A stretch of DNA of 64,000 nucleotides from a bacterium (GTDB lineage: Bacteria > SAR324 > XYD2-FULL-50-16), in assembly GCA_032250835.1 (NCBI GenBank), contig JAVVEA010000013.1:5662-69661 (forward strand). The letters are read 5' to 3'. Below, one piece after another: positions 585 through 11,759 of this stretch. Numbering within the stretch: position 1 is the stretch's first letter; each line of letters starts with the position of its first letter. Under the pieces are notes generated by a model, which was given only the letters and a program-made list of their open reading frames with translations, was not told where the DNA came from and searched no databases. A program made the translations under genes and the position numbers.

Positions 585-614
585 TTGCAGTTCAATTAAG
601 TTTTATTGTAAAGC
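585..614 (+). promoter_or_regulatory. Putative sigma70 promoter of the mini-array/cas operon, containing a TTC-PAM-flanked partial protospacer (PAM 591-593, protospacer from 594)
   Basis: AT-rich; TTGCAG (585-590) is -35-like with a weak -10-like TAAAGC 18 nt later; 594-610 matches the spacer at 676-692 at 16/17 positions. Confidence 0.5.
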
Positions 615-642
615 TATCCATAACCGCCCTTAAGGCGATGAA

Positions 643-734
643 ATCTCGTTCTGATAAGATCGAGCGGATTGAAACAATTAAGTTTTTTTGTATTTTCTAA
701 TACCGAGCTCCGCCCTGTAAGGGCGGGGTTGCAG
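643..734 (+). ncRNA. CRISPR-like regulatory mini-array (degenerate repeat - ~33 nt spacer - degenerate repeat), CreA/CreR-like guide RNA
   Basis: 643-675 is a hairpin (CTCG.TCT-GATA-AGA.CGAG) followed by CGGATTGAAAC, versus TGGATTGAAAC in the array repeat; 709-734 is a CGCCCT-GTA-AGGGCG hairpin followed by GGGTTGCAGT. Confidence 0.7.
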
Positions 735-890
735 TGGAATTGTTTTTAGTCTTTGAATTGAGCTGCTTTTTTGGGCCTTCGGCTACCTGGGACCCGCAGT
801 TTATTTCAATATTTTTACCAATTGACCGAAACTTAGCCGCTCAGGGTGACGCCATGGGGTTCGGTTGTGAATTTTGGAGCTTAATTTCTG

Positions 891-1235
891 ATGCTTGATC
901 CCCTCTACGCGCACTCCCGCGAAGGCCATCCCAAGGAAGCTTGGCACTCTCTAGAAGACCACTTAAAAGCGACCGCCGCTTTGGCGGCCCGCTTTGCCAA
1001 TCCGTTGGGCTTTGAAGATTGGGCCGCTTTGGCTGGGGTCCTGCACGACCTCGGCAAATCTTCCCAAGCCTTTCAAGGTTATCTTTCCATCGTCACCGAG
1101 AAAGTCTGCATAGGCCCCTCGTATTACGCAAAGTCCACCGCTGCGAATATTGCCCGCTGCCTATTTGCTGACGGAGCGAAAAGTTCCATGGGTCCATATG
1201 GTTTTTGGCAATCTCTACAAAACCACACTTTTTAA
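891..1235 (+). pseudogene. Truncated Cas3 HD-nuclease N-terminal fragment
   Basis: YAHS...HSLEDHL...LHDLGK..AFQGYL parallels the N-terminus of the adjacent Cas3, then similarity stops; the later DHS, HH and DAD motifs are missing. Confidence 0.7.
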
Positions 1236-1244
1236 GGGCAAGTT

Positions 1245-3701
1245 ATGAGTCCAGAAGATTTGATTGCGCATTTCCGCTCCTCTGATCACACGACACAACT
1301 CTTGGTCGATCACCTGACCGCGGTGGCGTCACTGGCTCGCCAATATGCCGCTAAAATCGGCTGTCCGAATTCTGGGGAGGCGATTGGCTTAGGTCATGAT
1401 ACCGGCAAAGCAGGCTCGATTTTCCAAAACTATCTACGGTCTGCGGTTGGGTTGCTGGACCCTGACCAAGACGCCGACTACCTAGATACGAGGCATTACG
1501 CCGGGAAAATCGATCACTCGACGGCAGGGGCGCAACTGATGTGGCGGAGCCTCTCTAAAGGCGACAAGCAGAGCCAAGTGTTGGGTCAGGTGCTGGCACT
1601 TTGCATTTCTTCGCACCATTCTGGCCTAATCGACGCACTGACCCCCGACGGCAAAGACCGATTTTCCGAGCGAATGGGGAAGGATGATGCCAAGACCCAC
1701 TGCTCCGAAGCCTTTGAAAAATTGCAGGGACCCGTCCTGGACCGCATCTGTGAGCTGCTGGCGGACCCAGAGACTCAGGGCGAAGTTGCCCGATTGCTGC
1801 GCCAAATTTGGGAACGGGACCGGGCAAACGAAATAGTGGTTCGGTGCAAAGCTGGGCTTGCCGTCCGCTTTTTGTTTAGTTGCCTGATCGACGCAGACCG
1901 GGTGGATTCGGCGGATTTTGAAGCGCCCCAAGGGGCCGCTTTGAGGGGGCAACATCCCGGTTGGGAAATCTTGATCGATCGGCTTGAGGCCCATTTGGAC
2001 AAAATACCGGACCAATACCCTATTGACCCCCTGCGGCGAGAGATTTCGGCTCACTGTCGAAGCGGGGCTGTGCGGGACCAGGGCCTATTTTCCTTAAGCG
2101 TCCCCACTGGCGGAGGCAAGACTTTGGCTAGTTTGCGTTTCGCGCTCCATCACGCCCGGCGGCATGGGCTGGACCGGGTGATTTACGTTGTTCCCTTTAC
2201 CACCATCATCGACCAAAACGCTCAGTCGGTACGGAACATTTTAGATCCCCAGGCGACGGGTTCCATCGTACTGGAACATCATTCTAACCTGTTGCCCGAA
2301 AAGCAGACTTGGCAACACAAGCTGCTATCGGCCAACTGGGATGCGCCCATTGTCTTCACCACTTCTGTACAGTTTTTAGAAGCACTGTTCGGTTCAGGAA
2401 CCCGAAGCGCCCGGCGAATGCACCAGCTGGCTAAATCTCTTCTGGTTTTTGACGAGGTGCAATCGCTCCCGATCAAGACGCTGCACCTCTTTAACAATGG
2501 GTTGAATTTATTGGTGGAGCAATGCGGGAGTACAGCGATACTCTGCACCGCAACGCAACCGTTGCTGGACAAAATCGATCCGGCCAAGGGGGCTTTGGCC
2601 CTAAAACCGGACGCCGAGCTGATGCCCGAAGTGCTGCCACTCTTCAAACAGTTGGAGCGGGTTAAGGTGTTACCCAAGCTCAAGCCTGCCGGATGGAAGG
2701 ACGAAGAGGTCGCCCATTTGGCGCAAGCGGAGGTCCTTAAGGCCGGGAGCTGTCTGGCGGTGGTGAACACAAAAAAATCGGCCCAATCGTTGTTCCGGCT
2801 CTGCCAGGGCAACGCAGATTACCCGGTGTTTCATCTTAGCACCCATCAGTGCCCGGCCCATAGAAAGGACCTATTAGAAAAAATAAAAGCACTGCTGGTG
2901 GCAGAAAAACCGGTACTCTGCATCAGTACGCAGTTGATCGAAGCCGGGGTCGATGTGGATTTTGGATCGGTGATCCGTTGCTTGGCCGGTTTGGATTCCA
3001 TCGCCCAAGCGGCGGGACGCTGCAATCGTAATGGCAAAGGTAAAGTGAAAGGGGAAGTGCACGTGGTCAACCTCGAAGCGGAGAACCTAGGTCCCCTGGA
3101 AGAAATCGCCATCGGCCAGAAAAATGCTCGGCGTATTCTAGATGAATTTGAAGAGGACCCAGAATCCTTTGATTGTGACCTCATCGGGCCTACCGCGATG
3201 AAACGGTATTACCAATATGCTTTTTTTGACCGCAACCAGACCGAAAAGATGGATTTTCCGTTGCCCGCAACCTCTTTTGATCGGGACGACACCTTGTTGA
3301 GTCTGCTGGCGGAAAACAAGAAGTCCAAGGAGGAATTTTTGCGCATAAACAAAAATCAACCGTTCAATCACTATTTTGCCCAGTCCTTTATGTCGGCGGC
3401 CAAAAATTTCGCCGCCATTGACACACCCACCCAGGGGGTGATTGTCCCCTACGGGAGCAAAGGCCGGGAGCTGATTGGGGCGCTTTGCACGGAAGAAGAC
3501 TTGGCGAAGCGCAGGAAACTCTTGGCCCAGGCGCAGCAGTACTCGGTAAACCTGTTTAACCATGAGCGGGGAAGGTTGCCTCAAGGGGCCTTGGTCGAGG
3601 TGACGCAGCTCGGGCTGTTTTATCTGGATGAGAGGCACTACCACGAGGACTTTGGCTTTACTTTGGAACCTATCGGAAAAATGGAGGTGTATTTTGTTTG
3701 A
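1245..3701 (+). CDS. cas3: CRISPR-associated helicase/nuclease Cas3
   Basis: HD domain (GHDTGK, DHS, SHHSG, DADR), Walker A PTGGGKT, DEVQ, TAT, QAAGRCNR. Confidence 0.97.
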   Translation: MSPEDLIAHFRSSDHTTQLLVDHLTAVASLARQYAAKIGCPNSGEAIGLGHDTGKAGSIFQNYLRSAVGLLDPDQDADYLDTRHYAGKIDHSTAGAQLMWRSLSKGDKQSQVLGQVLALCISSHHSGLIDALTPDGKDRFSERMGKDDAKTHCSEAFEKLQGPVLDRICELLADPETQGEVARLLRQIWERDRANEIVVRCKAGLAVRFLFSCLIDADRVDSADFEAPQGAALRGQHPGWEILIDRLEAHLDKIPDQYPIDPLRREISAHCRSGAVRDQGLFSLSVPTGGGKTLASLRFALHHARRHGLDRVIYVVPFTTIIDQNAQSVRNILDPQATGSIVLEHHSNLLPEKQTWQHKLLSANWDAPIVFTTSVQFLEALFGSGTRSARRMHQLAKSLLVFDEVQSLPIKTLHLFNNGLNLLVEQCGSTAILCTATQPLLDKIDPAKGALALKPDAELMPEVLPLFKQLERVKVLPKLKPAGWKDEEVAHLAQAEVLKAGSCLAVVNTKKSAQSLFRLCQGNADYPVFHLSTHQCPAHRKDLLEKIKALLVAEKPVLCISTQLIEAGVDVDFGSVIRCLAGLDSIAQAAGRCNRNGKGKVKGEVHVVNLEAENLGPLEEIAIGQKNARRILDEFEEDPESFDCDLIGPTAMKRYYQYAFFDRNQTEKMDFPLPATSFDRDDTLLSLLAENKKSKEEFLRINKNQPFNHYFAQSFMSAAKNFAAIDTPTQGVIVPYGSKGRELIGALCTEEDLAKRRKLLAQAQQYSVNLFNHERGRLPQGALVEVTQLGLFYLDERHYHEDFGFTLEPIGKMEVYFV

Positions 3702-4419
3702 ATCAAAGAAAAACAGCATTGAATTTAAGGTCTGGGGGAGATATGCCCTGTTCACTGACCCCTTGACCAAATTGGGCGGTGAAAAATGCTCTTACCATAT
3801 TCCCACTTACGAGGCGCTCAAGGGCATCGCAAAGTCAATTTATTGGAAGCCCACCTTCACTTGGTTCATTGACGAAGTCCGGGTTCTGAACCGCATCCGC
3901 ACTCAGACCAAGGGGACCAAACCGCTGGAGTTCGGCGGCGGTAACTCACTAGCTTATTATACCTTCCTGGCCGATGTGGCCTATCAGGTACGGGCGCATT
4001 TTGAGTGGAACCCCTACCGCCCCGAACTGGCCGAAGACCGGATCGACAACAAACATTTTGAAATCGCCAAACGGGCGCTCTCCAAGGGAGGTCGTCAAGA
4101 CATCTTTTTGGGCACCCGTGATTGCCAAGGCTATGTGGAGCCCTGCGTATTTGGCCAAGGCGAGGGGGCCTATGATCAGGCAGGAGAATTGGCCTATGGT
4201 CTGATGTTTCACGGCTTTGACTATCCCGATGAAACCGGTGTCCATCAAATGGTTGCCCGGTTTTGGCAACCTGTCTTGCGGGACGGGTACCTCCGGTTTG
4301 AACCCCCGGCACAATGCAGGGTGCGTAAGGAGATAAAGGAAATGAAACCCAAGCAATTCAAGCTGGACCAAAGCTGCCAGCCTTCCACAGCGCTTTTGGG
4401 CGAAATGGAGGGAAAATGA
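3694..4419 (+). CDS. cas5: Type I-C Cas5 (Cas5d) crRNA-processing protein
   Basis: GRYALFTDP...SYHIPTYEALKGI..SIYWKP and FLGTRDC motifs; likely TTG start at 3694 after GGAGGTG, overlapping the cas3 stop. Confidence 0.95.
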   Translation: MFESKKNSIEFKVWGRYALFTDPLTKLGGEKCSYHIPTYEALKGIAKSIYWKPTFTWFIDEVRVLNRIRTQTKGTKPLEFGGGNSLAYYTFLADVAYQVRAHFEWNPYRPELAEDRIDNKHFEIAKRALSKGGRQDIFLGTRDCQGYVEPCVFGQGEGAYDQAGELAYGLMFHGFDYPDETGVHQMVARFWQPVLRDGYLRFEPPAQCRVRKEIKEMKPKQFKLDQSCQPSTALLGEMEGK

Positions 4420-6287
4420 GCTGGATCCAAAAACTATACGAAACCTATCAGCAATGCGCGCCAGCCGCTTTGAACACCCCAGACCCGCTGGCCCCAATCA
4501 GCCATGTTACTCAGCAGGCGCACATCGAAGTCACCTTGGACGGAAATGGGAACTTCAAAGGGGCGGAGGTCGTAGAAAAGGTCCCTACTCTGGTACCGGC
4601 AACGGAAGATTCCGCCAATCGTACCAGCGGGCAAGCAGCGCACCCTCTTTGCGACAAGCTCCAGTACTGCGCTGCGGACTACCCCGATTTGGGGGGCCGC
4701 AAACCCTCCTATTTTGAAGGGTACCAATCACAACTGGGCCAATGGTGCGCCTCTGAGTTCTCCCATCCGAAGGCTCAGGCAGTCTTGTCCTACATCAGCC
4801 AAAAAAGGCTGGTTCGCGACCTAATCGACTCTGGTGTCTGCTGGCTCGACCCGCAGGAGCAGCTTTGCACCAACGCCCCCCCAGATCAAACGACAGAGGC
4901 TAAGCTGTTTAAAATGCTGACGCCCAAAGAGGGCCTTCGGGATCAAGGCGATGGCTTTGTCCGTTGGCGGGTCAATATTCCCGGTGATCCTTACCCGGAG
5001 ACTTGGAACGACCCCTTGTTGTTAGATGCTTGGTCCCGTTACGACCAAAGCCAGCTCACAAAACGGGGGATATGTATGGTTACTGGTGAAGAAAGTGTTT
5101 TGGCGGAAAAACATCCGAGCAAGCTTCGGAATTCGGCGGATAAAGCCAAATTGGTGTCTTCAAATGACACTAGCGGATTCACCTTTAGAGGTCGTTTCAG
5201 TCAGGCTGATCAGGCGGTCGGCGTGGGGTTCGAAGTTAGCCAAAAGGCGCACAATGCCCTGAGGTGGCTGATCAAACGCCAAGGTTTCATGAATGAAGAT
5301 CAAGTGATTGTCTGCTGGGCTGTAGCGGGCCAAGAGATCCCTGATCCTTGGGCGGACTCGGCTACATTGTTCGGAGAAGAATCTCAGCCCGAAGCAGTTA
5401 CTTCCAGCGAAGCGGGCCAAACCTATGCCAAGCAGTTGGCCAAGGCGTTGGCTGGTTATCGCCAAAACTTAAATGACAGCGCTGCTATGGTCGTAATGGC
5501 TTTAGATTCGGCGACACCTGGACGGCTGGCCATCACCTACTACCGCGAGTTGACTGGGTCCGAGTTTTTGGACCGGGTCCAAGATTGGCACGAAAAGACG
5601 GCTTGGTACCGTGTTTCCAAAGGTCAACGATACATTGGGGCACCGCTCCCCAGGGAAATCGCCGAAGCCGCTTACGGTCAAATGGTGGACTCCAAGCTGA
5701 AAAAGGCGACTGTAGAGCGCCTCCTGCCCTGTATCATTGACGGGCGACCTTTGCCGTTGGACTTGGTTGAATCAATCGTCCGCCGCGCCTCTAACCGCAT
5801 CGGTCAGGAACCCTGGTTTTGGGAAAGAACCTTGGGCACCGCCTGTGCCTTATTTCGTAAACAAGCAAATGGGAGTTATTCGATGACTTTAGAAGAGCAA
5901 AGAACCAGCCGGGACTACCTTTATGGTCGTTTGCTGGCCATCGCCGATTTCTTGGAGGGGAAGGCCCTCTTTCTGGCCGACGAAGACCGGGAAACTACCG
6001 CTGCCCGGATGATGCACCGCTTCTCCAGCCAACCTTTTGCCACTTGGCCTCTGATCCACCAAGCCTTGGGCCCGTATAAGGCACGGCTTCGCGCGAAACG
6101 CCCTAAGCAGTTGGACTACTTGGAGCGCCAGATTATGGAGGTAACCAGCCAATTTAACCCCGCAGACTTTTTGGACAACAGGCGTTTGTCCGGCGAGTTT
6201 TTGCTGGGCTTTTATTGCCAGCGCCAAGCCCTGCGGTTCAAGCCAGACCATTCGGAAGAGACGATTGAAGAAACCCAGGCCAATTAA
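4416..6287 (+). CDS. cas8c: Type I-C large subunit Cas8c/Csd1
   Basis: MSWIQKLYETY, RTSG..AHPLCDKLQY, AKLVSSND, DYLYGRLLA, EFLLGFYCQ; position between cas5 and cas7. Confidence 0.95.
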   Translation: MSWIQKLYETYQQCAPAALNTPDPLAPISHVTQQAHIEVTLDGNGNFKGAEVVEKVPTLVPATEDSANRTSGQAAHPLCDKLQYCAADYPDLGGRKPSYFEGYQSQLGQWCASEFSHPKAQAVLSYISQKRLVRDLIDSGVCWLDPQEQLCTNAPPDQTTEAKLFKMLTPKEGLRDQGDGFVRWRVNIPGDPYPETWNDPLLLDAWSRYDQSQLTKRGICMVTGEESVLAEKHPSKLRNSADKAKLVSSNDTSGFTFRGRFSQADQAVGVGFEVSQKAHNALRWLIKRQGFMNEDQVIVCWAVAGQEIPDPWADSATLFGEESQPEAVTSSEAGQTYAKQLAKALAGYRQNLNDSAAMVVMALDSATPGRLAITYYRELTGSEFLDRVQDWHEKTAWYRVSKGQRYIGAPLPREIAEAAYGQMVDSKLKKATVERLLPCIIDGRPLPLDLVESIVRRASNRIGQEPWFWERTLGTACALFRKQANGSYSMTLEEQRTSRDYLYGRLLAIADFLEGKALFLADEDRETTAARMMHRFSSQPFATWPLIHQALGPYKARLRAKRPKQLDYLERQIMEVTSQFNPADFLDNRRLSGEFLLGFYCQRQALRFKPDHSEETIEETQAN

Positions 6288-6326
6288 AAACAACTTGTAC
6301 GATTTAAACTATATTAAGGAGTTACC

Positions 6327-7181
6327 ATGACTGCTTTGCAAAACAAAATTGATTTCGCCGTTGTCTTTGAAGTTAAAAACGCTAACCCCAACGGTGACCC
6401 GCTCAACGGCAATCGCCCCCGAACCGACTACGACGGGATCGGCGAGGTGACTGATGTCTGCTTGAAACGAAAGATTAGGGACCGCCTTTTAGAGCAAGGC
6501 CACTCTATTTTCGTGCAGTCAGAGGACCGGAAGTCCGACGACGCCACCAGTTTGCGTGACCGAGCAGAAAAGAACCTGGGTAAAAAGCTGACCCGCGACG
6601 AAACCATCCAGCAGGCTAGCGAAAAATGGCTGGACGTCCGGGCTTTTGGGCAGTTGTTTGCGTTCTCATCCAAAAAAAAGGAGGAAGGTAGTGATGGCGT
6701 TTCTATTGGCATCCGTGGTCCCGTCACCGTACAATCGGCTTTCAGCATCGCCCCGGTTGAGGTGGTGAGTGTACAGATCACCAAAAGCGTTAACGGCGAG
6801 GACCCCAAAAAAGCAGGGGGCCGCACTTCAGACACAATGGGCATGAAACACCGGGTCAAACACGGTGTTTATGTATTTTATGGGGCCATGAACCCCCAGC
6901 TGGCCGAAAAAACCGGTTTTTCTGACCAAGACGCGGAGGCTATCCTGGAGGTCTTGCCCCGAATTTTCGAGAACGATGCCTCTTCGGCGCGGCCCGAGGG
7001 CACTTTACAGGTGCTAAAGGCCGGCTACTGGAAACATACCTCCAAGGCTGGGCAATATTCTTCTGCCAAAGTCCACCAGACTTTGAAGGTCCGTATGGAT
7101 GATCTGAACCCCAATGGCGAACTGGAGCTTCAGGTCGGGCAGTTAGACGGATTGGTCTTTACGGAACTGCCCCTCTTTTGA
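6327..7181 (+). CDS. cas7: Type I-C Cas7/Csd2 backbone subunit
   Basis: NANPNGDPLNGNRPR, TDVCLKRKIRD, DVRAFG, IRGPV, TMGMKH. Confidence 0.96.
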   Translation: MTALQNKIDFAVVFEVKNANPNGDPLNGNRPRTDYDGIGEVTDVCLKRKIRDRLLEQGHSIFVQSEDRKSDDATSLRDRAEKNLGKKLTRDETIQQASEKWLDVRAFGQLFAFSSKKKEEGSDGVSIGIRGPVTVQSAFSIAPVEVVSVQITKSVNGEDPKKAGGRTSDTMGMKHRVKHGVYVFYGAMNPQLAEKTGFSDQDAEAILEVLPRIFENDASSARPEGTLQVLKAGYWKHTSKAGQYSSAKVHQTLKVRMDDLNPNGELELQVGQLDGLVFTELPLF

Positions 7182-7266
7182 GCATTTTGACATGCCTAAA
7201 AACGTACAGGCTAGCAAAGGGAATCCTGCCGGGGGCAGCTTGGATAGCTTCGACGGCAGGGATTCA

Positions 7267-7884
7267 ATGACGGAAGGCGCCGAAAGGGAACCCATTCTTC
7301 TTTCGGCGCTACAACACTACTTATTTTGCCCCCGTCAATATGCCTTGATTCATCTTGAAGGGGCTTGGGCAGAAAACCAGCAAACCGCGCAGGGGCAAAT
7401 TCTACACAGGCGGGTAGACGAGCCCCAAACGCTCTGGGAAAGTGGTGTCCGCGTCGAGATGGGCCTTCAGCTCCACCATAAAAAATTAGCCATTTCGGGT
7501 CGAGCCGACCGCGTCGAATTTAACCCAGACCCCTTTCCGGTAGAAACTAAAAGAGGACGTCCCAAAAAGCAGGATTGGGACCGAGTGCAGCTTTGCGCCC
7601 AAGCACTTTGTCTTGAAGAAATGTTGGGGGTCCCGGTCTTGGCGGGTGCGTTGTATTATGCGCAGCCGAAGCGACGCGAGCTCGTTGCCTTCGACCACGC
7701 TATTCGCGAAAAAACCCTGCAAACCATTGATGCGGTCCACCGGCTAAGTGAATCAGGGATTACCCCGGCCCCTCCGGCCAAGGCCTCATGCCGCAATTGT
7801 TCTTTAGTGGATTTATGTTTACCCAACATGTTTAAGCATTCCCGCAGCGCGGCAGCTTACCGAGAACAGGAGTGCGACCTATGA
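7267..7884 (+). CDS. cas4: Cas4 exonuclease
   Basis: LSALQHYLFCPRQ, GRADRVE, PVETKRG, QLCAQALCLEEM, C-terminal CRNCSLVDLC Fe-S motif; ATG at 7267 preferred. Confidence 0.95.
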   Translation: MTEGAEREPILLSALQHYLFCPRQYALIHLEGAWAENQQTAQGQILHRRVDEPQTLWESGVRVEMGLQLHHKKLAISGRADRVEFNPDPFPVETKRGRPKKQDWDRVQLCAQALCLEEMLGVPVLAGALYYAQPKRRELVAFDHAIREKTLQTIDAVHRLSESGITPAPPAKASCRNCSLVDLCLPNMFKHSRSAAAYREQECDL

Positions 7885-8912
7885 AAAGACTACTCAACAC
7901 GCTATATCTGACCCGCGACGGAATTTACCTGAACAAGGAGCGCGAAACCTTCAAAGTGATGAAAGACACCAAAACTCTAATGAAAGTCCCTGTGGGCACC
8001 ATCAACCAAATTATTTGCATTGGGTCGGTCACTCTCACGCCCCCGGTTATGGCCTTTTGCGTTGATCAGGGGGTGTCGGTTGTTTACCTCAGCGAATACG
8101 GCAGGTTCCAGGTGCGACTAGAAGGGCCGACTTCAGGCAATATACTTCTGCGCCGCCGGCAATATGCGATAGCCCAGGAGCCCAATACGGCCTTGGACGT
8201 GAGCCGAAGTTTTGTGTTGGGGAAATTAGTCAACGCAAAGCGGGTGCTTTCTAGGGCTCTGGCCGACCACGGGGACCGGCTGGACCAAGGCGCTTTTACC
8301 ACAACCCTCCAAAGGTACCGCGAGGCCCGGCAACAGGTGCTGCAAACCGATAATTTAGATAGCTTGCGGGGTATTGAAGGGGAGCTGGCGAAACGATATT
8401 TTGCCCTCTTTGATCAGATGATTTTAAACAACAAAGAAGATTTCTATTTTAAGGGGCGCAGTCGCAGACCGCCTTTGGACCGGATCAATGCGCTACTTTC
8501 CTTTTTGTATGCGTTGCTTTTGGCGGACTGCCGTGCGGCTTTAGAAGGGGTCGGGTTGGATTCTGCCGCAGGGTACCTGCACCAAGACCGCCCGGGGAGG
8601 CCCGGTTTGGCGCTAGATTTGATGGAGGAATTTCGGCCTCTGCTGGCGGATCGGTTGGCTTTGTCTTTGGTTAATCGGTCCCAGGTAAATGCCGATGATT
8701 TCACGCTGCAATCCGCCGGTGCGGTTTTGTTAAACGATTCTGGGCGGCGCAAGGTGGTCGCCGCATATCAAGAGCGTAAAACAACCGACATCACCCACCC
8801 TTTCTTAAACGAAAAATTTGCTCAAGGACTGCTGCCGCACGCTCAAGCCCTTCTGCTGGCGCGCTATATCAGAGGCGATCTAGATGCTTATCCGCCCTAT
8901 TATTGGAAATAG
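7881..8912 (+). CDS. cas1: Type I-C Cas1 integrase
   Basis: MKRLLNTLY, GNILLRRRQY, LRGIEG, RSRRPPLD, LALDLMEEFRP, YPPYYWK. Confidence 0.97.
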   Translation: MKRLLNTLYLTRDGIYLNKERETFKVMKDTKTLMKVPVGTINQIICIGSVTLTPPVMAFCVDQGVSVVYLSEYGRFQVRLEGPTSGNILLRRRQYAIAQEPNTALDVSRSFVLGKLVNAKRVLSRALADHGDRLDQGAFTTTLQRYREARQQVLQTDNLDSLRGIEGELAKRYFALFDQMILNNKEDFYFKGRSRRPPLDRINALLSFLYALLLADCRAALEGVGLDSAAGYLHQDRPGRPGLALDLMEEFRPLLADRLALSLVNRSQVNADDFTLQSAGAVLLNDSGRRKVVAAYQERKTTDITHPFLNEKFAQGLLPHAQALLLARYIRGDLDAYPPYYWK

Positions 8913-8928
8913 ATAAAACGGGAGTATT

Positions 8929-9219
8929 ATGTTAGTGGTTGTTTGCTATGATGTCTCTACTGTCGAAGTTGCCGGAGAGCGGCGGTTGCGGCGCGTTGCA
9001 AAAGTCTGTGAAGATGTTGGGCAGCGAGTTCAAAAGTCGGTTTTCGAGTGCTTGGTTGAGCCTGCTCAGTGGGAATATTTCAAGGCTCGCCTGATTGAAA
9101 CCATCGACCTAAAAGAGGACTCGCTCCGTTTTTATTTTTTAGGTAGCCAATGGAAACGCAGAGTGGAACATATAGGGACCAATCGTCCCTGGGACCCTGA
9201 AGGTGTGCTGATTTTGTAA
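8929..9219 (+). CDS. cas2: Cas2
   Basis: VCYDVS, RRLRRVAKVC, QRVQKSVFEC, DSLRFY. Confidence 0.97.
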   Translation: MLVVVCYDVSTVEVAGERRLRRVAKVCEDVGQRVQKSVFECLVEPAQWEYFKARLIETIDLKEDSLRFYFLGSQWKRRVEHIGTNRPWDPEGVLIL

Positions 9220-9442
9220 TTGCGAACCTCAAGCTACGGTTGTGCTTTTGTGCGTTACATCAGCGGTGAATAAGGCGAGAGCTGCTTTTTTGAGACGCGC
9301 CCGTTCGCACTTCTCTTGTTCATTGAAAACTAAATAGGTTTATGCAAGAATTGTCAAAAGACATCAAATCTCCTTTCCGAAAGTTGCGGTTTCGCGGAAA
9401 GGCCCTGCCGAGCTGGTCCTAGCCAGCGATAAGAAAGCCGCA
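9220..9442 (+). promoter_or_regulatory. CRISPR leader
   Basis: Non-coding, partly AT-rich segment between the cas2 stop and the first repeat. Confidence 0.8.
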
Positions 9443-11472
9443 GTCGCCCCCCACGCGGGGGCGTGGATTGAAACTTTTGTTCTATCGCAAAGGCAATATC
9501 AGACATTGTGTCGCCCCCCACGCGGGGGCGTGGATTGAAACTCTAGAGCAACAACGTAACCCAATTCATTCATACCGTCGCCCCCCACGCGGGGGCGTGG
9601 ATTGAAACAATTCGTCGAACATAACCAATGGTTTCCCTGGCGTGTCGCCCCCCACGCGGGGGCGTGGATTGAAACTATTATCCTGGCCCGCCTGAGCCCT
9701 CATGGAGGTTGTCGCCCCCCACGCGGGGGCGTGGATTGAAACCCTAAAATAGTCTGGGACTTCTGAAAAATAGGGGGTCGCCCCCCACGCGGGGGCGTGG
9801 ATTGAAACTTTTTGGGACGACAACCAAGTGCTGGCCGCGCAGATGTCGCCCCCCACGCGGGGGCGTGGATTGAAACTTTTTTGACCAGCCCCCCGGCGGG
9901 GCGGCCTAGGGTCGCCCCCCACGCGGGGGCGTGGATTGAAACCTCATCTGCAAGCCCTCGGGCCCATTCTACGGGATAGTCGCCCCCCACGCGGGGGCGT
10001 GGATTGAAACAGGTAGTCGGGGATCTCGGTCTTGACCGCTTCGAGTCGCCCCCCACGCGGGGGCGTGGATTGAAACTCGTAACGGCTCCATTGAGTCGGC
10101 TTGATACCGCAAGTCGCCCCCCACGCGGGGGCGTGGATTGAAACCCCCAACTCCTTGGCGGTGGCGGCCAGTTTTTGAAAGTCGCCCCCCACGCGGGGGC
10201 GTGGATTGAAACTAAAATAGACCTTGTCAACCAAAACAAGGATCACAAGTCGCCCCCCACGCGGGGGCGTGGATTGAAACTTTGATTGCCGCCAACTTGG
10301 GCAACGTCAGGTAAGGTCGCCCCCCACGCGGGGGCGTGGATTGAAACATGATGGCCCGCTCTATAAAATCACGCTCAAGCTGGTCGCCCCCCACGCGGGG
10401 GCGTGGATTGAAACCTTCCAGGTCCATCTCCAAGCACTTACTGTGCAGGTCGCCCCCCACGCGGGGGCGTGGATTGAAACACCTTCGATAGCGGCCAGCA
10501 AAGCTGCACACTGCTCGTCGCCCCCCACGCGGGGGCGTGGATTGAAACTTAGGTTTTCTATACATATTGTCGGGGCTTAGTTGTCGCCCCCCACGCGGGG
10601 GCGTGGATTGAAACTCATTGCGTCGCCACCACGCCAGCGAGAACCGCCGGTCGCCCCCCACGCGGGGGCGTGGATTGAAACACCAAAGAAAAGTCCCTCT
10701 TAAGACTCAACCCGGGTCGCCCCCCACGCGGGGGCGTGGATTGAAACTTGCTACCGGCGATACTGATCTGTTTGACGCCGGGGGGTCGCCCCCCACGCGG
10801 GGGCGTGGATTGAAACTTTGGCGGCGGCGCGCGCATCCAGCTCGATTTTGTCGCCCCCCACGCGGGGGCGTGGATTGAAACCGTAAGTTCTAAGAGTTTC
10901 GTATCCTAACATTTGAGTCGCCCCCCACGCGGGGGCGTGGATTGAAACAAAACCTCCGCCCTGATGCTTTCCGGGCTTCCGGTCGCCCCCCACGCGGGGG
11001 CGTGGATTGAAACCCGAAGGCGGCCCACGACGACGGCCCCGACGCCCCCACGCGGGGGCGTGGATTGAAACAGTCGCGCAGGCACCGGTGTACACGCTGC
11101 CGTTGGGTCGCCCCCCACGCGGGGGCGTGGATTGAACCCCCCCCTGGGCGTCCAAGGCCCACCGCTCTTTGGTGTCGCCCCCCACGCGGGGGCGTGGATT
11201 GAAACCCCGGTGCCTAAGTCTTCCGGGCAAAGGGCGCGAACGTCGCCCCCCACGCGGGGGCGTGGATTGAAACCTGCGCTGGGCGCACGAGTCGGGCCGA
11301 TTGGAGTGTCGCCCCCCACGCGGGGGCGTGGATTGAAACTCGTCAGGTGTGACCGAAGGCGCTATTCGGGCGGGTCGCCCCCCACGCGGGGGCGTGGATT
11401 GAAACTTCGATGGCCAGCGCCACGGCGGTGGCGCGTTCGAGTCGCCCCCCACGCGGGGGTATGGATTAAAAT
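9443..11472 (+). CRISPR. Type I-C CRISPR array: 31 repeats (GTCGCCCCCCACGCGGGGGCGTGGATTGAAAC, 32 bp) and 30 spacers, mostly 33-37 bp
   Basis: Repeats counted by eye from 9443 to 11441; degenerate terminal repeat (..GGGGGTATGGATTAAAAT) marks the trailer; variant repeats at 11041 and 11107. Confidence 0.98.
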
Positions 11473-11759
11473 CAACGGGCTCTAGGGGTGCCAGTGGCGG
11501 TTCCCCGCCCCCTGGGGGCGAGCCGGACCATATCTTTGTTTGCGCCCGTCCGCATGGTTTCCCTACGCCGCCCAAAGGGGTTCTAAGCGATATTTCGGAG
11601 GTAAAGATGCCGCGCTGGGGGTGACCGAAATCGTTCTCCAGCCTTTAACACCATGCGTTTTGGGGTGGTTCTGTGGATAAAGTTTTGACTCTAATTTGAA
11701 ATGGCTTATACTAAAGGTTAGTACACTTCTGTTCACTGGAATTCCAACTGAGGCTGAAG

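Follow-up and report, generated by a model that had tools for sequence, protein, structure and literature searches.

The window analysed here is a stretch of 64,000 nucleotides (nt) of contig JAVVEA010000013.1 (assembly GCA_032250835.1), from a bacterium of the SAR324 lineage. Near its start it carries a degenerate CRISPR unit with a single spacer, here called the mini-array, which lies 570 nt upstream of an intact type I-C cas3-cas2 operon and on the same strand as the main CRISPR array. A preliminary description, made from the letters of the window, had proposed that the spacer acts as a guide like that of a CRISPR RNA (crRNA) and directs Cascade to a TTC-flanked site in the cas promoter region. 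The core of that reading, namely a degenerate mini-CRISPR, a crRNA-like guide and a TTC site, was supported by controls in the source genome and by four other type I-C loci.

The first gene of the window, a histidine-kinase gene of which the 3' end is present (3-470), is followed after a gap of 420 nt by a relic of a cas3 gene; the mini-array and its target both lie in this gap. The intact operon cas3-cas5c-cas8c-cas7-cas4-cas1-cas2 occupies 1245..9219 on the + strand, with the present cas3 at 1245-3701 and the cas2 end at 9219. All seven products pass the NCBIfam cut-offs of I-C or general Cas models, and Cas5c, Cas8c and Cas7 are all full length. This operon is the presumed source of Cascade and also the presumed output of the feedback loop. 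The main array (9443..11475, + strand, same orientation as the mini-array) has 31 repeats of GTCGCCCCCCACGCGGGGGCGTGGATTGAAAC with spacers of 34-36 nt, and it starts 8.8 kb downstream of the mini-array. The source genome holds more I-C-type array sequence than the window does: further arrays with the same repeat end were seen on the short contigs C23, C25, C28 and C35, and the assembly breaks inside such arrays.

The cas3 relic (891..1235, + strand; TIGR01596, E 2e-13) represents the first ~115 codons of the HD domain of another cas3. Its open reading frame (ORF) of 114 codons stops 9 nt before the present cas3 and can be aligned, in the same frame, with residues ~1-118 of Cas3 homologues. Against the present Cas3 it has 42% identity over 45 amino acids, and against Cas3s of the same phylum and others 52-60% over about 60 residues. 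Because a second cas3 5' fragment is present at 891-1235, the cassette from cas3 to the array seems to have replaced an older one. It suggests that the older control region and gene start were left behind when the whole cas cassette was swapped.

Direct reading confirmed the positions which had been given for all parts of the element. The −35-like hexamer TTGCAG (585..590, + strand), a putative promoter element, abuts the 5' side of TTC (591..593), which is named as the type I-C protospacer-adjacent motif (PAM) in a report on Neisseria (10.1101/2024.12.27.630466) and here stands on the strand which reads like the guide. The target AATTAAGTTTTATTGTA follows at 594..610. Another 33 nt separate the target from the pseudo-repeat, whose hairpin (645..664; CTCG-T-TCT / AGA-T-CGAG, seven pairs with one T-T mismatch and the loop GATA) stops exactly where the handle begins. 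The 5' handle CGGATTGAAAC (665..675, 11 nt) shares 10 of its 11 bases with the 3' end of the array repeat GTCGCCCCCCACGCGGGGGCGTGGATTGAAAC, as had been proposed. The guide, or pseudo-spacer, occupies 676..709 and begins AATTAAGTTTTTTTGTA; the target lies 82 nt upstream of it. All these features are on the + strand.

Guide positions 1-17 are matched by the 17 nt of the target except at position 12. Comparison of the first 20 positions gave mismatches at 12, 18, 19 and 20, in agreement with the earlier statement that positions 1-11 and 13-17 match and that pairing ends at 18. Beyond this point guide positions 18-34 and the target flank have only 1/17 bases in common by hand count.

A GC-rich hairpin of 11 pairs follows the guide at about 706..730 (+ strand), with its loop at 717-719. 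This loop is 53-55 nt from the first base of the handle, which is where the hairpin of a next repeat would sit. The hairpin had been described as a second pseudo-repeat; the structure is there, but its likeness to the repeat is marginal (96/2000 shuffles score equally well), so we call it the 3' hairpin. The first repeat has only the handle in common with the array repeat, and the element is unlike a canonical CRISPR array, in which two or more near-identical repeats with a leader can take up spacers. No Rfam CRISPR-DR match was obtained at 643-735, and the array repeats themselves give 29 weak matches; at 585-780 no known RNA family of Rfam was found beyond weak chance matches. Behind the 3' hairpin, a weak hairpin followed by TTTTTT (731..776, + strand) was seen on folding and could be a leaky small-RNA terminator, although it stays below the criteria of the terminator scan. 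The 14-nt sequence GAGCTGCTTTTTTG at 760-773, after the mini-array, recurs at 9279-9292 after the cas2 stop, and both copies form the 3' half of a weak hairpin with a T run. The pair may be twin terminators or a trace of common origin.

Chance was examined in the source genome (3.66 Mb searched), in which a handle-like site was defined as a solitary 10-mer with at most one mismatch. When the flanks were block-shuffled 3000 times, the best TTC-flanked 17-mer had at least 5 mismatches, against 1 observed. A perfect guide seed was found at 8 genome sites including the guide itself, and only 594-610 combined it with TTC and 16/17 matches. Among 205 solitary handle-like sites just one, beside cas3, had a 16/17 TTC-flanked match within 1.5 kb. 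The handle-guide-target arrangement is not due to chance.

The preliminary description had named an AT-rich local duplication as something that could refute it, and there are some points for a duplication (chance or structural) of an AT-rich promoter region unrelated to CRISPR, with an accidental handle. A TTG-type hexamer precedes both copies, and a promoter-like site is flagged in the second one. The exact 10-mer GGATTGAAAC has 5 solitary copies in the genome where about 4-7 are expected by chance; however, only the copy beside cas3 has a target, and the remaining 4 have no TTC-flanked partner. The shuffles and the 205-site control argue against a duplication, and so does the comparison with other loci which is given below.

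The nearest Cas3 is only 56% identical, and type I-C loci were therefore gathered through their Cas3. This gave 11 loci from the same phylum, 80 on contigs of one genome per species (23-protein alignment) and 48 from metagenomes, the last found with the Cas3 of the nearest relative, locus L011. For each locus 1.5 kb upstream of cas3 was scanned on both strands with arrays masked, and a repeat pair was counted when the seed was perfect (positions 1-5 and 7-11) and at least 14/17 positions matched. The first set had 88 usable loci (253,690 positions) and the metagenome set 40 of 48 with at least 300 nt upstream, which makes 128 loci in total, some of them near-duplicates (e.g. L134-L136), so that they are not 128 independent lineages.

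The 88 loci contained 1,101 local repeat pairs, and exactly five of these have the guide copy after a handle with at most 1/11 mismatch; no pair followed a handle with 2-3 mismatches. TTC precedes the other copy in 5/5 of the handle pairs versus 34/1,096 of the remaining pairs. The first mismatches in the five pairs are at positions 6, 6, 6, 6 and 12, the last being that of the window. No handle-guide-target set was carried by any of the 40 usable metagenome loci. The five loci are the window, L011 (genome G058, same class as the window, Cas3 54% identical), L079 (Candidatus Enterococcus ikei), L080 (Clostridiaceae bacterium JG1575) and L100 (metagenome-assembled genome of Oliverpabstia). Since the guides are unrelated across the five loci, guide and target change together from locus to locus. 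So the comparison of cas3 upstream regions, which had been suggested as a check, gave the same device with unrelated guide/target pairs in 5 of 128 loci, but no kin above 56% Cas3 identity.

Further features are common to these loci. A hairpin of differing sequence ends exactly at the handle in 5/5, and the loop of the main 3' hairpin (11-23 pairs) lies 50-58 nt from the handle start in 5/5. The distance from handle to stem varies over 15-30 nt, yet the loop distance stays at 50-58 nt, which by arithmetic (repeat plus spacers of 34-36 nt) is about the loop position of the next repeat in a normal repeat-spacer unit. In front of cas3, L100 has an 11/12 promoter whose −35 box shares bases with the target; in L080 two promoters placed back to back, of which one serves the small RNA and the other points to cas3, overlap the target. 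TTGACA directly precedes TTC in L011, the same place where the window has TTGCAG. A duplication would have to explain how TTC, a sixth-position mismatch, an abutting hairpin and the distance of the 3' hairpin coincide and then recur in four unrelated loci; the uniform TTC also argues against an artefact of the search. We regard a duplication as very improbable.

Two candidates were rejected. L061 has a TTC pair with a 'handle' of 4 mismatches, and was set aside because its guide copy is inside cas3. A viral mimic of the window guide was suspected from one IMG/VR match (L102), which lies in an ORF of an AT-rich phage and has no hairpin; it was judged a chance match, as about 0.2 of these are expected by rough estimate. 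Viral mimics aimed at Neisseria I-C loci are reported in 10.1101/2024.10.29.618823. In L148, a metagenome I-C locus, a solitary CGGATTGAAAC of the same variant as in the window stands on the − strand about 180 nt upstream of cas3, with no TTC-flanked partner in the 1.5 kb scanned; a target, if it has one, would be elsewhere.

The closest published relatives are the I-C crRNA-like RNAs of Neisseria, for which small-RNA sequencing and reporter tests are given in 10.1101/2024.12.27.630466. These RNAs are 48-50 nt long. Cleavage immediately 3' of a hairpin gives them an 11-nt handle, and their 3' end falls within the loop of a 3' hairpin. In the units, the match covers 16 bp with position 6 mismatched, TTC is present and a −35 box adjoins the target. 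Repression is about 21-fold, and was lost and then regained with compensating mutations. Units from solitary repeats regulate Nezha, Gabija and 'CRISIS' defence genes. Thus the published RNAs have the features of the core reading of the window. The window element is of the same subtype and has the hairpin followed by an 11-nt handle, the TTC and a 3' hairpin positioned like the one in which the Neisseria RNAs end (at 48-50 nt there, with the loop at 53-55 nt in the window); it also has a PAM-proximal match of 16-17 bp with the mismatch at a sixth position, and its target adjoins a −35 box, though in the window this is −35-like and putative. It differs in other respects. Neisseria units sit between cargo genes and cas5c inside the operon and repress the cargo, while the window unit is upstream of cas3, has no cargo in the 33 nt between target and pseudo-repeat, and has its target upstream of the unit.

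CreA and CreR have been tested for subtypes I-B, I-E and V-A, and creA-like elements for I-C were found by hand (10.1101/2023.03.10.532045). Like CreR, the mini-array is a degenerate mini-CRISPR beside cas genes in which the handle-forming part of the first pseudo-repeat is kept, and its guide partially matches a PAM-flanked site by a (putative) cas promoter; no toxin partner was seen. The proposed autorepression, relieved by the crRNA load or by anti-CRISPRs, would also be like that of CreR. In the published layout creR lies upstream of the cas promoter which it targets, and in the tested cases the target is at the effector-gene promoter, downstream of creR; the order in the window is target, guide gene, cas3. 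CreA of CreTA is likewise a degenerate crRNA which represses a promoter through Cascade (repression being a proposal in the window), but CreA guards a toxin gene, and no toxin candidate was seen in the window. ORFs of at least 20 amino acids in 471-900 are without ATG starts or family matches, no credible small ORF was seen, and no Pfam match was found for 734-898, a search which covers protein toxins and not RNA toxins.

Two-repeat mini-arrays have also been found in I-E, I-F1, I-D and I-B loci (PMC10120712, a text which names I-C once). They resemble the window element in having a good first and a degraded second repeat, a sporadic spread, and a partial seed match with cognate PAM in the cas promoter region with mismatches at sixth positions. 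Unlike it, they mostly read away from cas3 and have the target downstream. A layout with the target upstream of the guide was not met in the accessible parts of the literature on CreR, mini-arrays and I-C crRNA-like RNAs, the supplementary I-C lists standing outside this coverage. On this feature-by-feature comparison we class the window element as a member of the established CreR / crRNA-like class. The novelty claimed in the preliminary description was overstated, as regulators of the CreR type are already described and crRNA-like RNAs of I-C are bench-tested.

Together, these features make it very probable that 645 to about 730 is a working CreR-type guide RNA gene of type I-C for the site at 594-610. 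Transcription would start somewhere in about 560-640, and Cas5c would cut the precursor at 664/665, the 3' base of the 645-664 hairpin. The product held by Cascade would have the handle from 665 and the guide from 676 and end in or near the loop 717-719; an end in the loop of the 706-730 hairpin gives a length of about 53-55 nt. Loaded Cascade would recognise TTC at 591-593 and pair with 594-610 over 17 bp, with the sole mismatch, at position 12, falling where Cascade flips a base out. By analogy with the Neisseria I-C units, Cascade would bind and Cas3 would not be licensed to cut, because pairing stops at 17 bp. Directly after TTGCAG, the target lies at the centre of the only intergenic stretch able to hold the small-RNA promoter, so the RNA should at least repress itself. 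The bound complex would also lower read-through transcription of the cas3 relic and cas3-cas2, and more free Cascade would thus mean less cas transcription. It is probable, with less assurance than for the guide RNA gene itself, that the guide feeds back on the cas operon in this way.

Several observations weigh against this reading. The pseudo-repeat hairpin, which had been described at the handle, is present but weak, at −7.0 kcal/mol against −15.1 kcal/mol for the array repeat; it is the best fold provided that the handle is kept single-stranded, while the free minimum fold of −8.6 kcal/mol sequesters part of the handle. The device is sporadic among the scanned loci. No DNA match to 471-900 was found in 60 relatives, and the nearest Cas3 in a set of 5.8 billion proteins is the 56% one mentioned above, so that there is no close relative for covariation. 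A contig scan with a single Cas3 protein yielded no confirmed relative, and the metagenome relatives of the L011 Cas3, beyond the copy from the same genome, are all at most 61% identical. In addition, the mini-array may belong to the older locus which is now reduced to the cas3 relic.

Such points would fit a dead relic of an older I-C locus that is no longer expressed, in which the match persists only through the short time since its loss. The cas3 fragment 891-1235 lies directly downstream, the hairpin of the pseudo-repeat has little stability, the second hairpin is marginally repeat-like, and relatives which could show purifying selection are lacking. But the handle is kept at 10/11 bases. 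The I-C handle is nearly universal, being found in nearly all of the 57 recovered arrays, and for this reason the present Cascade should still accept an old guide. The sole difference between guide and target falls at the flipped-out position 12, the PAM is intact and the 3' hairpin keeps its ruler distance. Positions 18-34 of the guide are so little alike in the target flank that a long divergence, with the first 17 positions kept, is indicated. A dead relic therefore appears improbable to us, if less so than a duplication.

The promoter and the read-through are the other point of doubt for the proposed feedback. The −35 and −10 elements which had been placed around the target were recovered only in part: TTGCAG is at 585-590, but the consensus promoter scan flags no promoter at 585-614, this hexamer included, and neither does it flag TTGACA-17-TACCTT in L011. 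Several weak promoter alternatives overlap the target. The sole + strand match of the scan is TTGAAA-16-TATTTT at 669-696 (9/12), no better than shuffles. This promoter-like site lies within the mini-array, with TTGAAA from the handle and TATTTT from the guide. More generally, the I-C handle is similar to a −35 box, a promoter spacer is copied by the guide, and such guide genes may carry a cryptic promoter which is out of Cascade's reach because it has no PAM.

After the guide, the 11-bp GC-rich hairpin and then the weak hairpin with T6 may end most transcripts. A strong hairpin (12-23 pairs) follows the guide in L011, L079, L080 and L100 as well. The scan calls it terminator-like in L079, L080 and L100; in L011 its call is limited to a core of 5 pairs whose T run is offset, while T8 follows the full 20-pair stem. 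Between this hairpin and cas3, L011 has 150 nt and possibly a separate promoter. Small RNAs of this kind may thus be separate transcription units. If so, the guide of the window would repress only its own promoter, and the cas operon would need another promoter in 776-890 or in the relic. The feedback on cas3-cas2 would hence depend on read-through past the guide.

A working crRNA-like RNA that represses only its own promoter or some other output, with a separate downstream promoter for the cas operon, would set its own level and not Cas levels. Such an arrangement would agree with the position of the target upstream of the guide gene, and not between the guide gene and cas3, and with the hairpins behind the guide, among them the long one with T8 in the tandem locus L011, 150 nt before cas3. 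Published CreR genes also sit upstream of the targeted cas promoter. However, no intrinsic + strand terminator was flagged in 400-1400, the gap from the relic to cas3 is a mere 9 nt, and no convincing promoter was seen on reading the sequence of 776-890. A loop without output has no evident use, and in L080 and L100 the same kind of guide targets promoters which face cas3. We hold this explanation to be rather unlikely, though it deserves more credit than the dead relic, and we retain feedback on the cas operon as the preferred reading.

The window also allows a layout in which the operon's own 5' leader contains the guide gene that controls it, with one promoter (about 585-620) and one transcript. 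Cas5c would excise the guide, and the remainder that passes the leaky hairpin would be the cas3-cas2 message. We put this forward tentatively, as it is the less likely course. If it is true, the guide and the Cas proteins would arise in constant proportion and be switched off at the same time, in a closed loop with one promoter; this differs from the described CreR, in which the cas promoter has a separate small-RNA gene upstream. L011, the tandem relative, would then be a second case, and the cas3 relic would mark a control head that outlived the swap of the whole cas cassette behind it.

An I-C CreR-type element is by itself not surprising to a specialist; the leads of use are the signature common to the five loci, the order with the target before the guide, and the relic. 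Control of type I-C systems by their own guide RNAs would reach beyond the cargo cases of Neisseria, as at least five distant lineages have the same device ahead of cas3 (5/128 loci scanned). The signature has three parts: a hairpin abutting GGATTGAAA, a stretch of 16-20 nt that matches a TTC site and is mismatched at a sixth position, and a 3' hairpin whose loop is 50-58 nt away from the first base of the handle. It could be used to annotate guide genes which CRISPR finders miss. The proposed feedback predicts that Cas levels rise when crRNAs titrate Cascade or when anti-CRISPRs block it. New angles are the layout with the target before the guide, and the cas3 relic, as a hint that replacement of the cassette can leave control elements in place.

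Two of the other loci show additional features. In L011, a stretch of 161 nt (1056-1216) lies between the targeted promoter and the pseudo-repeat. It folds at −79.2 kcal/mol (z = −7.5; 0/200 shuffles as good), has a closing helix of 15 bp and includes a GGTTCGAGTCC motif which resembles the T-arm of tRNA. Rfam gave only weak chance matches in L011 900-1500, and no tRNA was found in L011. An origin as a miniature inverted-repeat transposable element was considered, but the stretch is single-copy in G058 and the idea is unsupported. Possibly it is a cargo RNA which the guide controls. In the same locus the likeness of target and guide (1018-1048 versus 1231-1261) extends upstream, with ATTGACATTC before the target and ATTGAAAC before the guide; the same comparison is weak in the window. 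The target of L011 may therefore stem from a duplicated repeat-spacer unit whose repeat end became the −35 box and TTC.

In L079 (9639-9917) a TTGACC-17-TACAAT promoter stands just upstream of the TTC-flanked target 9693-9708, and downstream of this target comes a very hydrophobic ORF of 56 codons (9747-9917), which precedes cas3. This ORF gave only sub-threshold family matches. It looks from its sequence like a Cascade-repressed small membrane protein, either a CreT-type toxin or other cargo, and L079 may thus be of the CreTA type.

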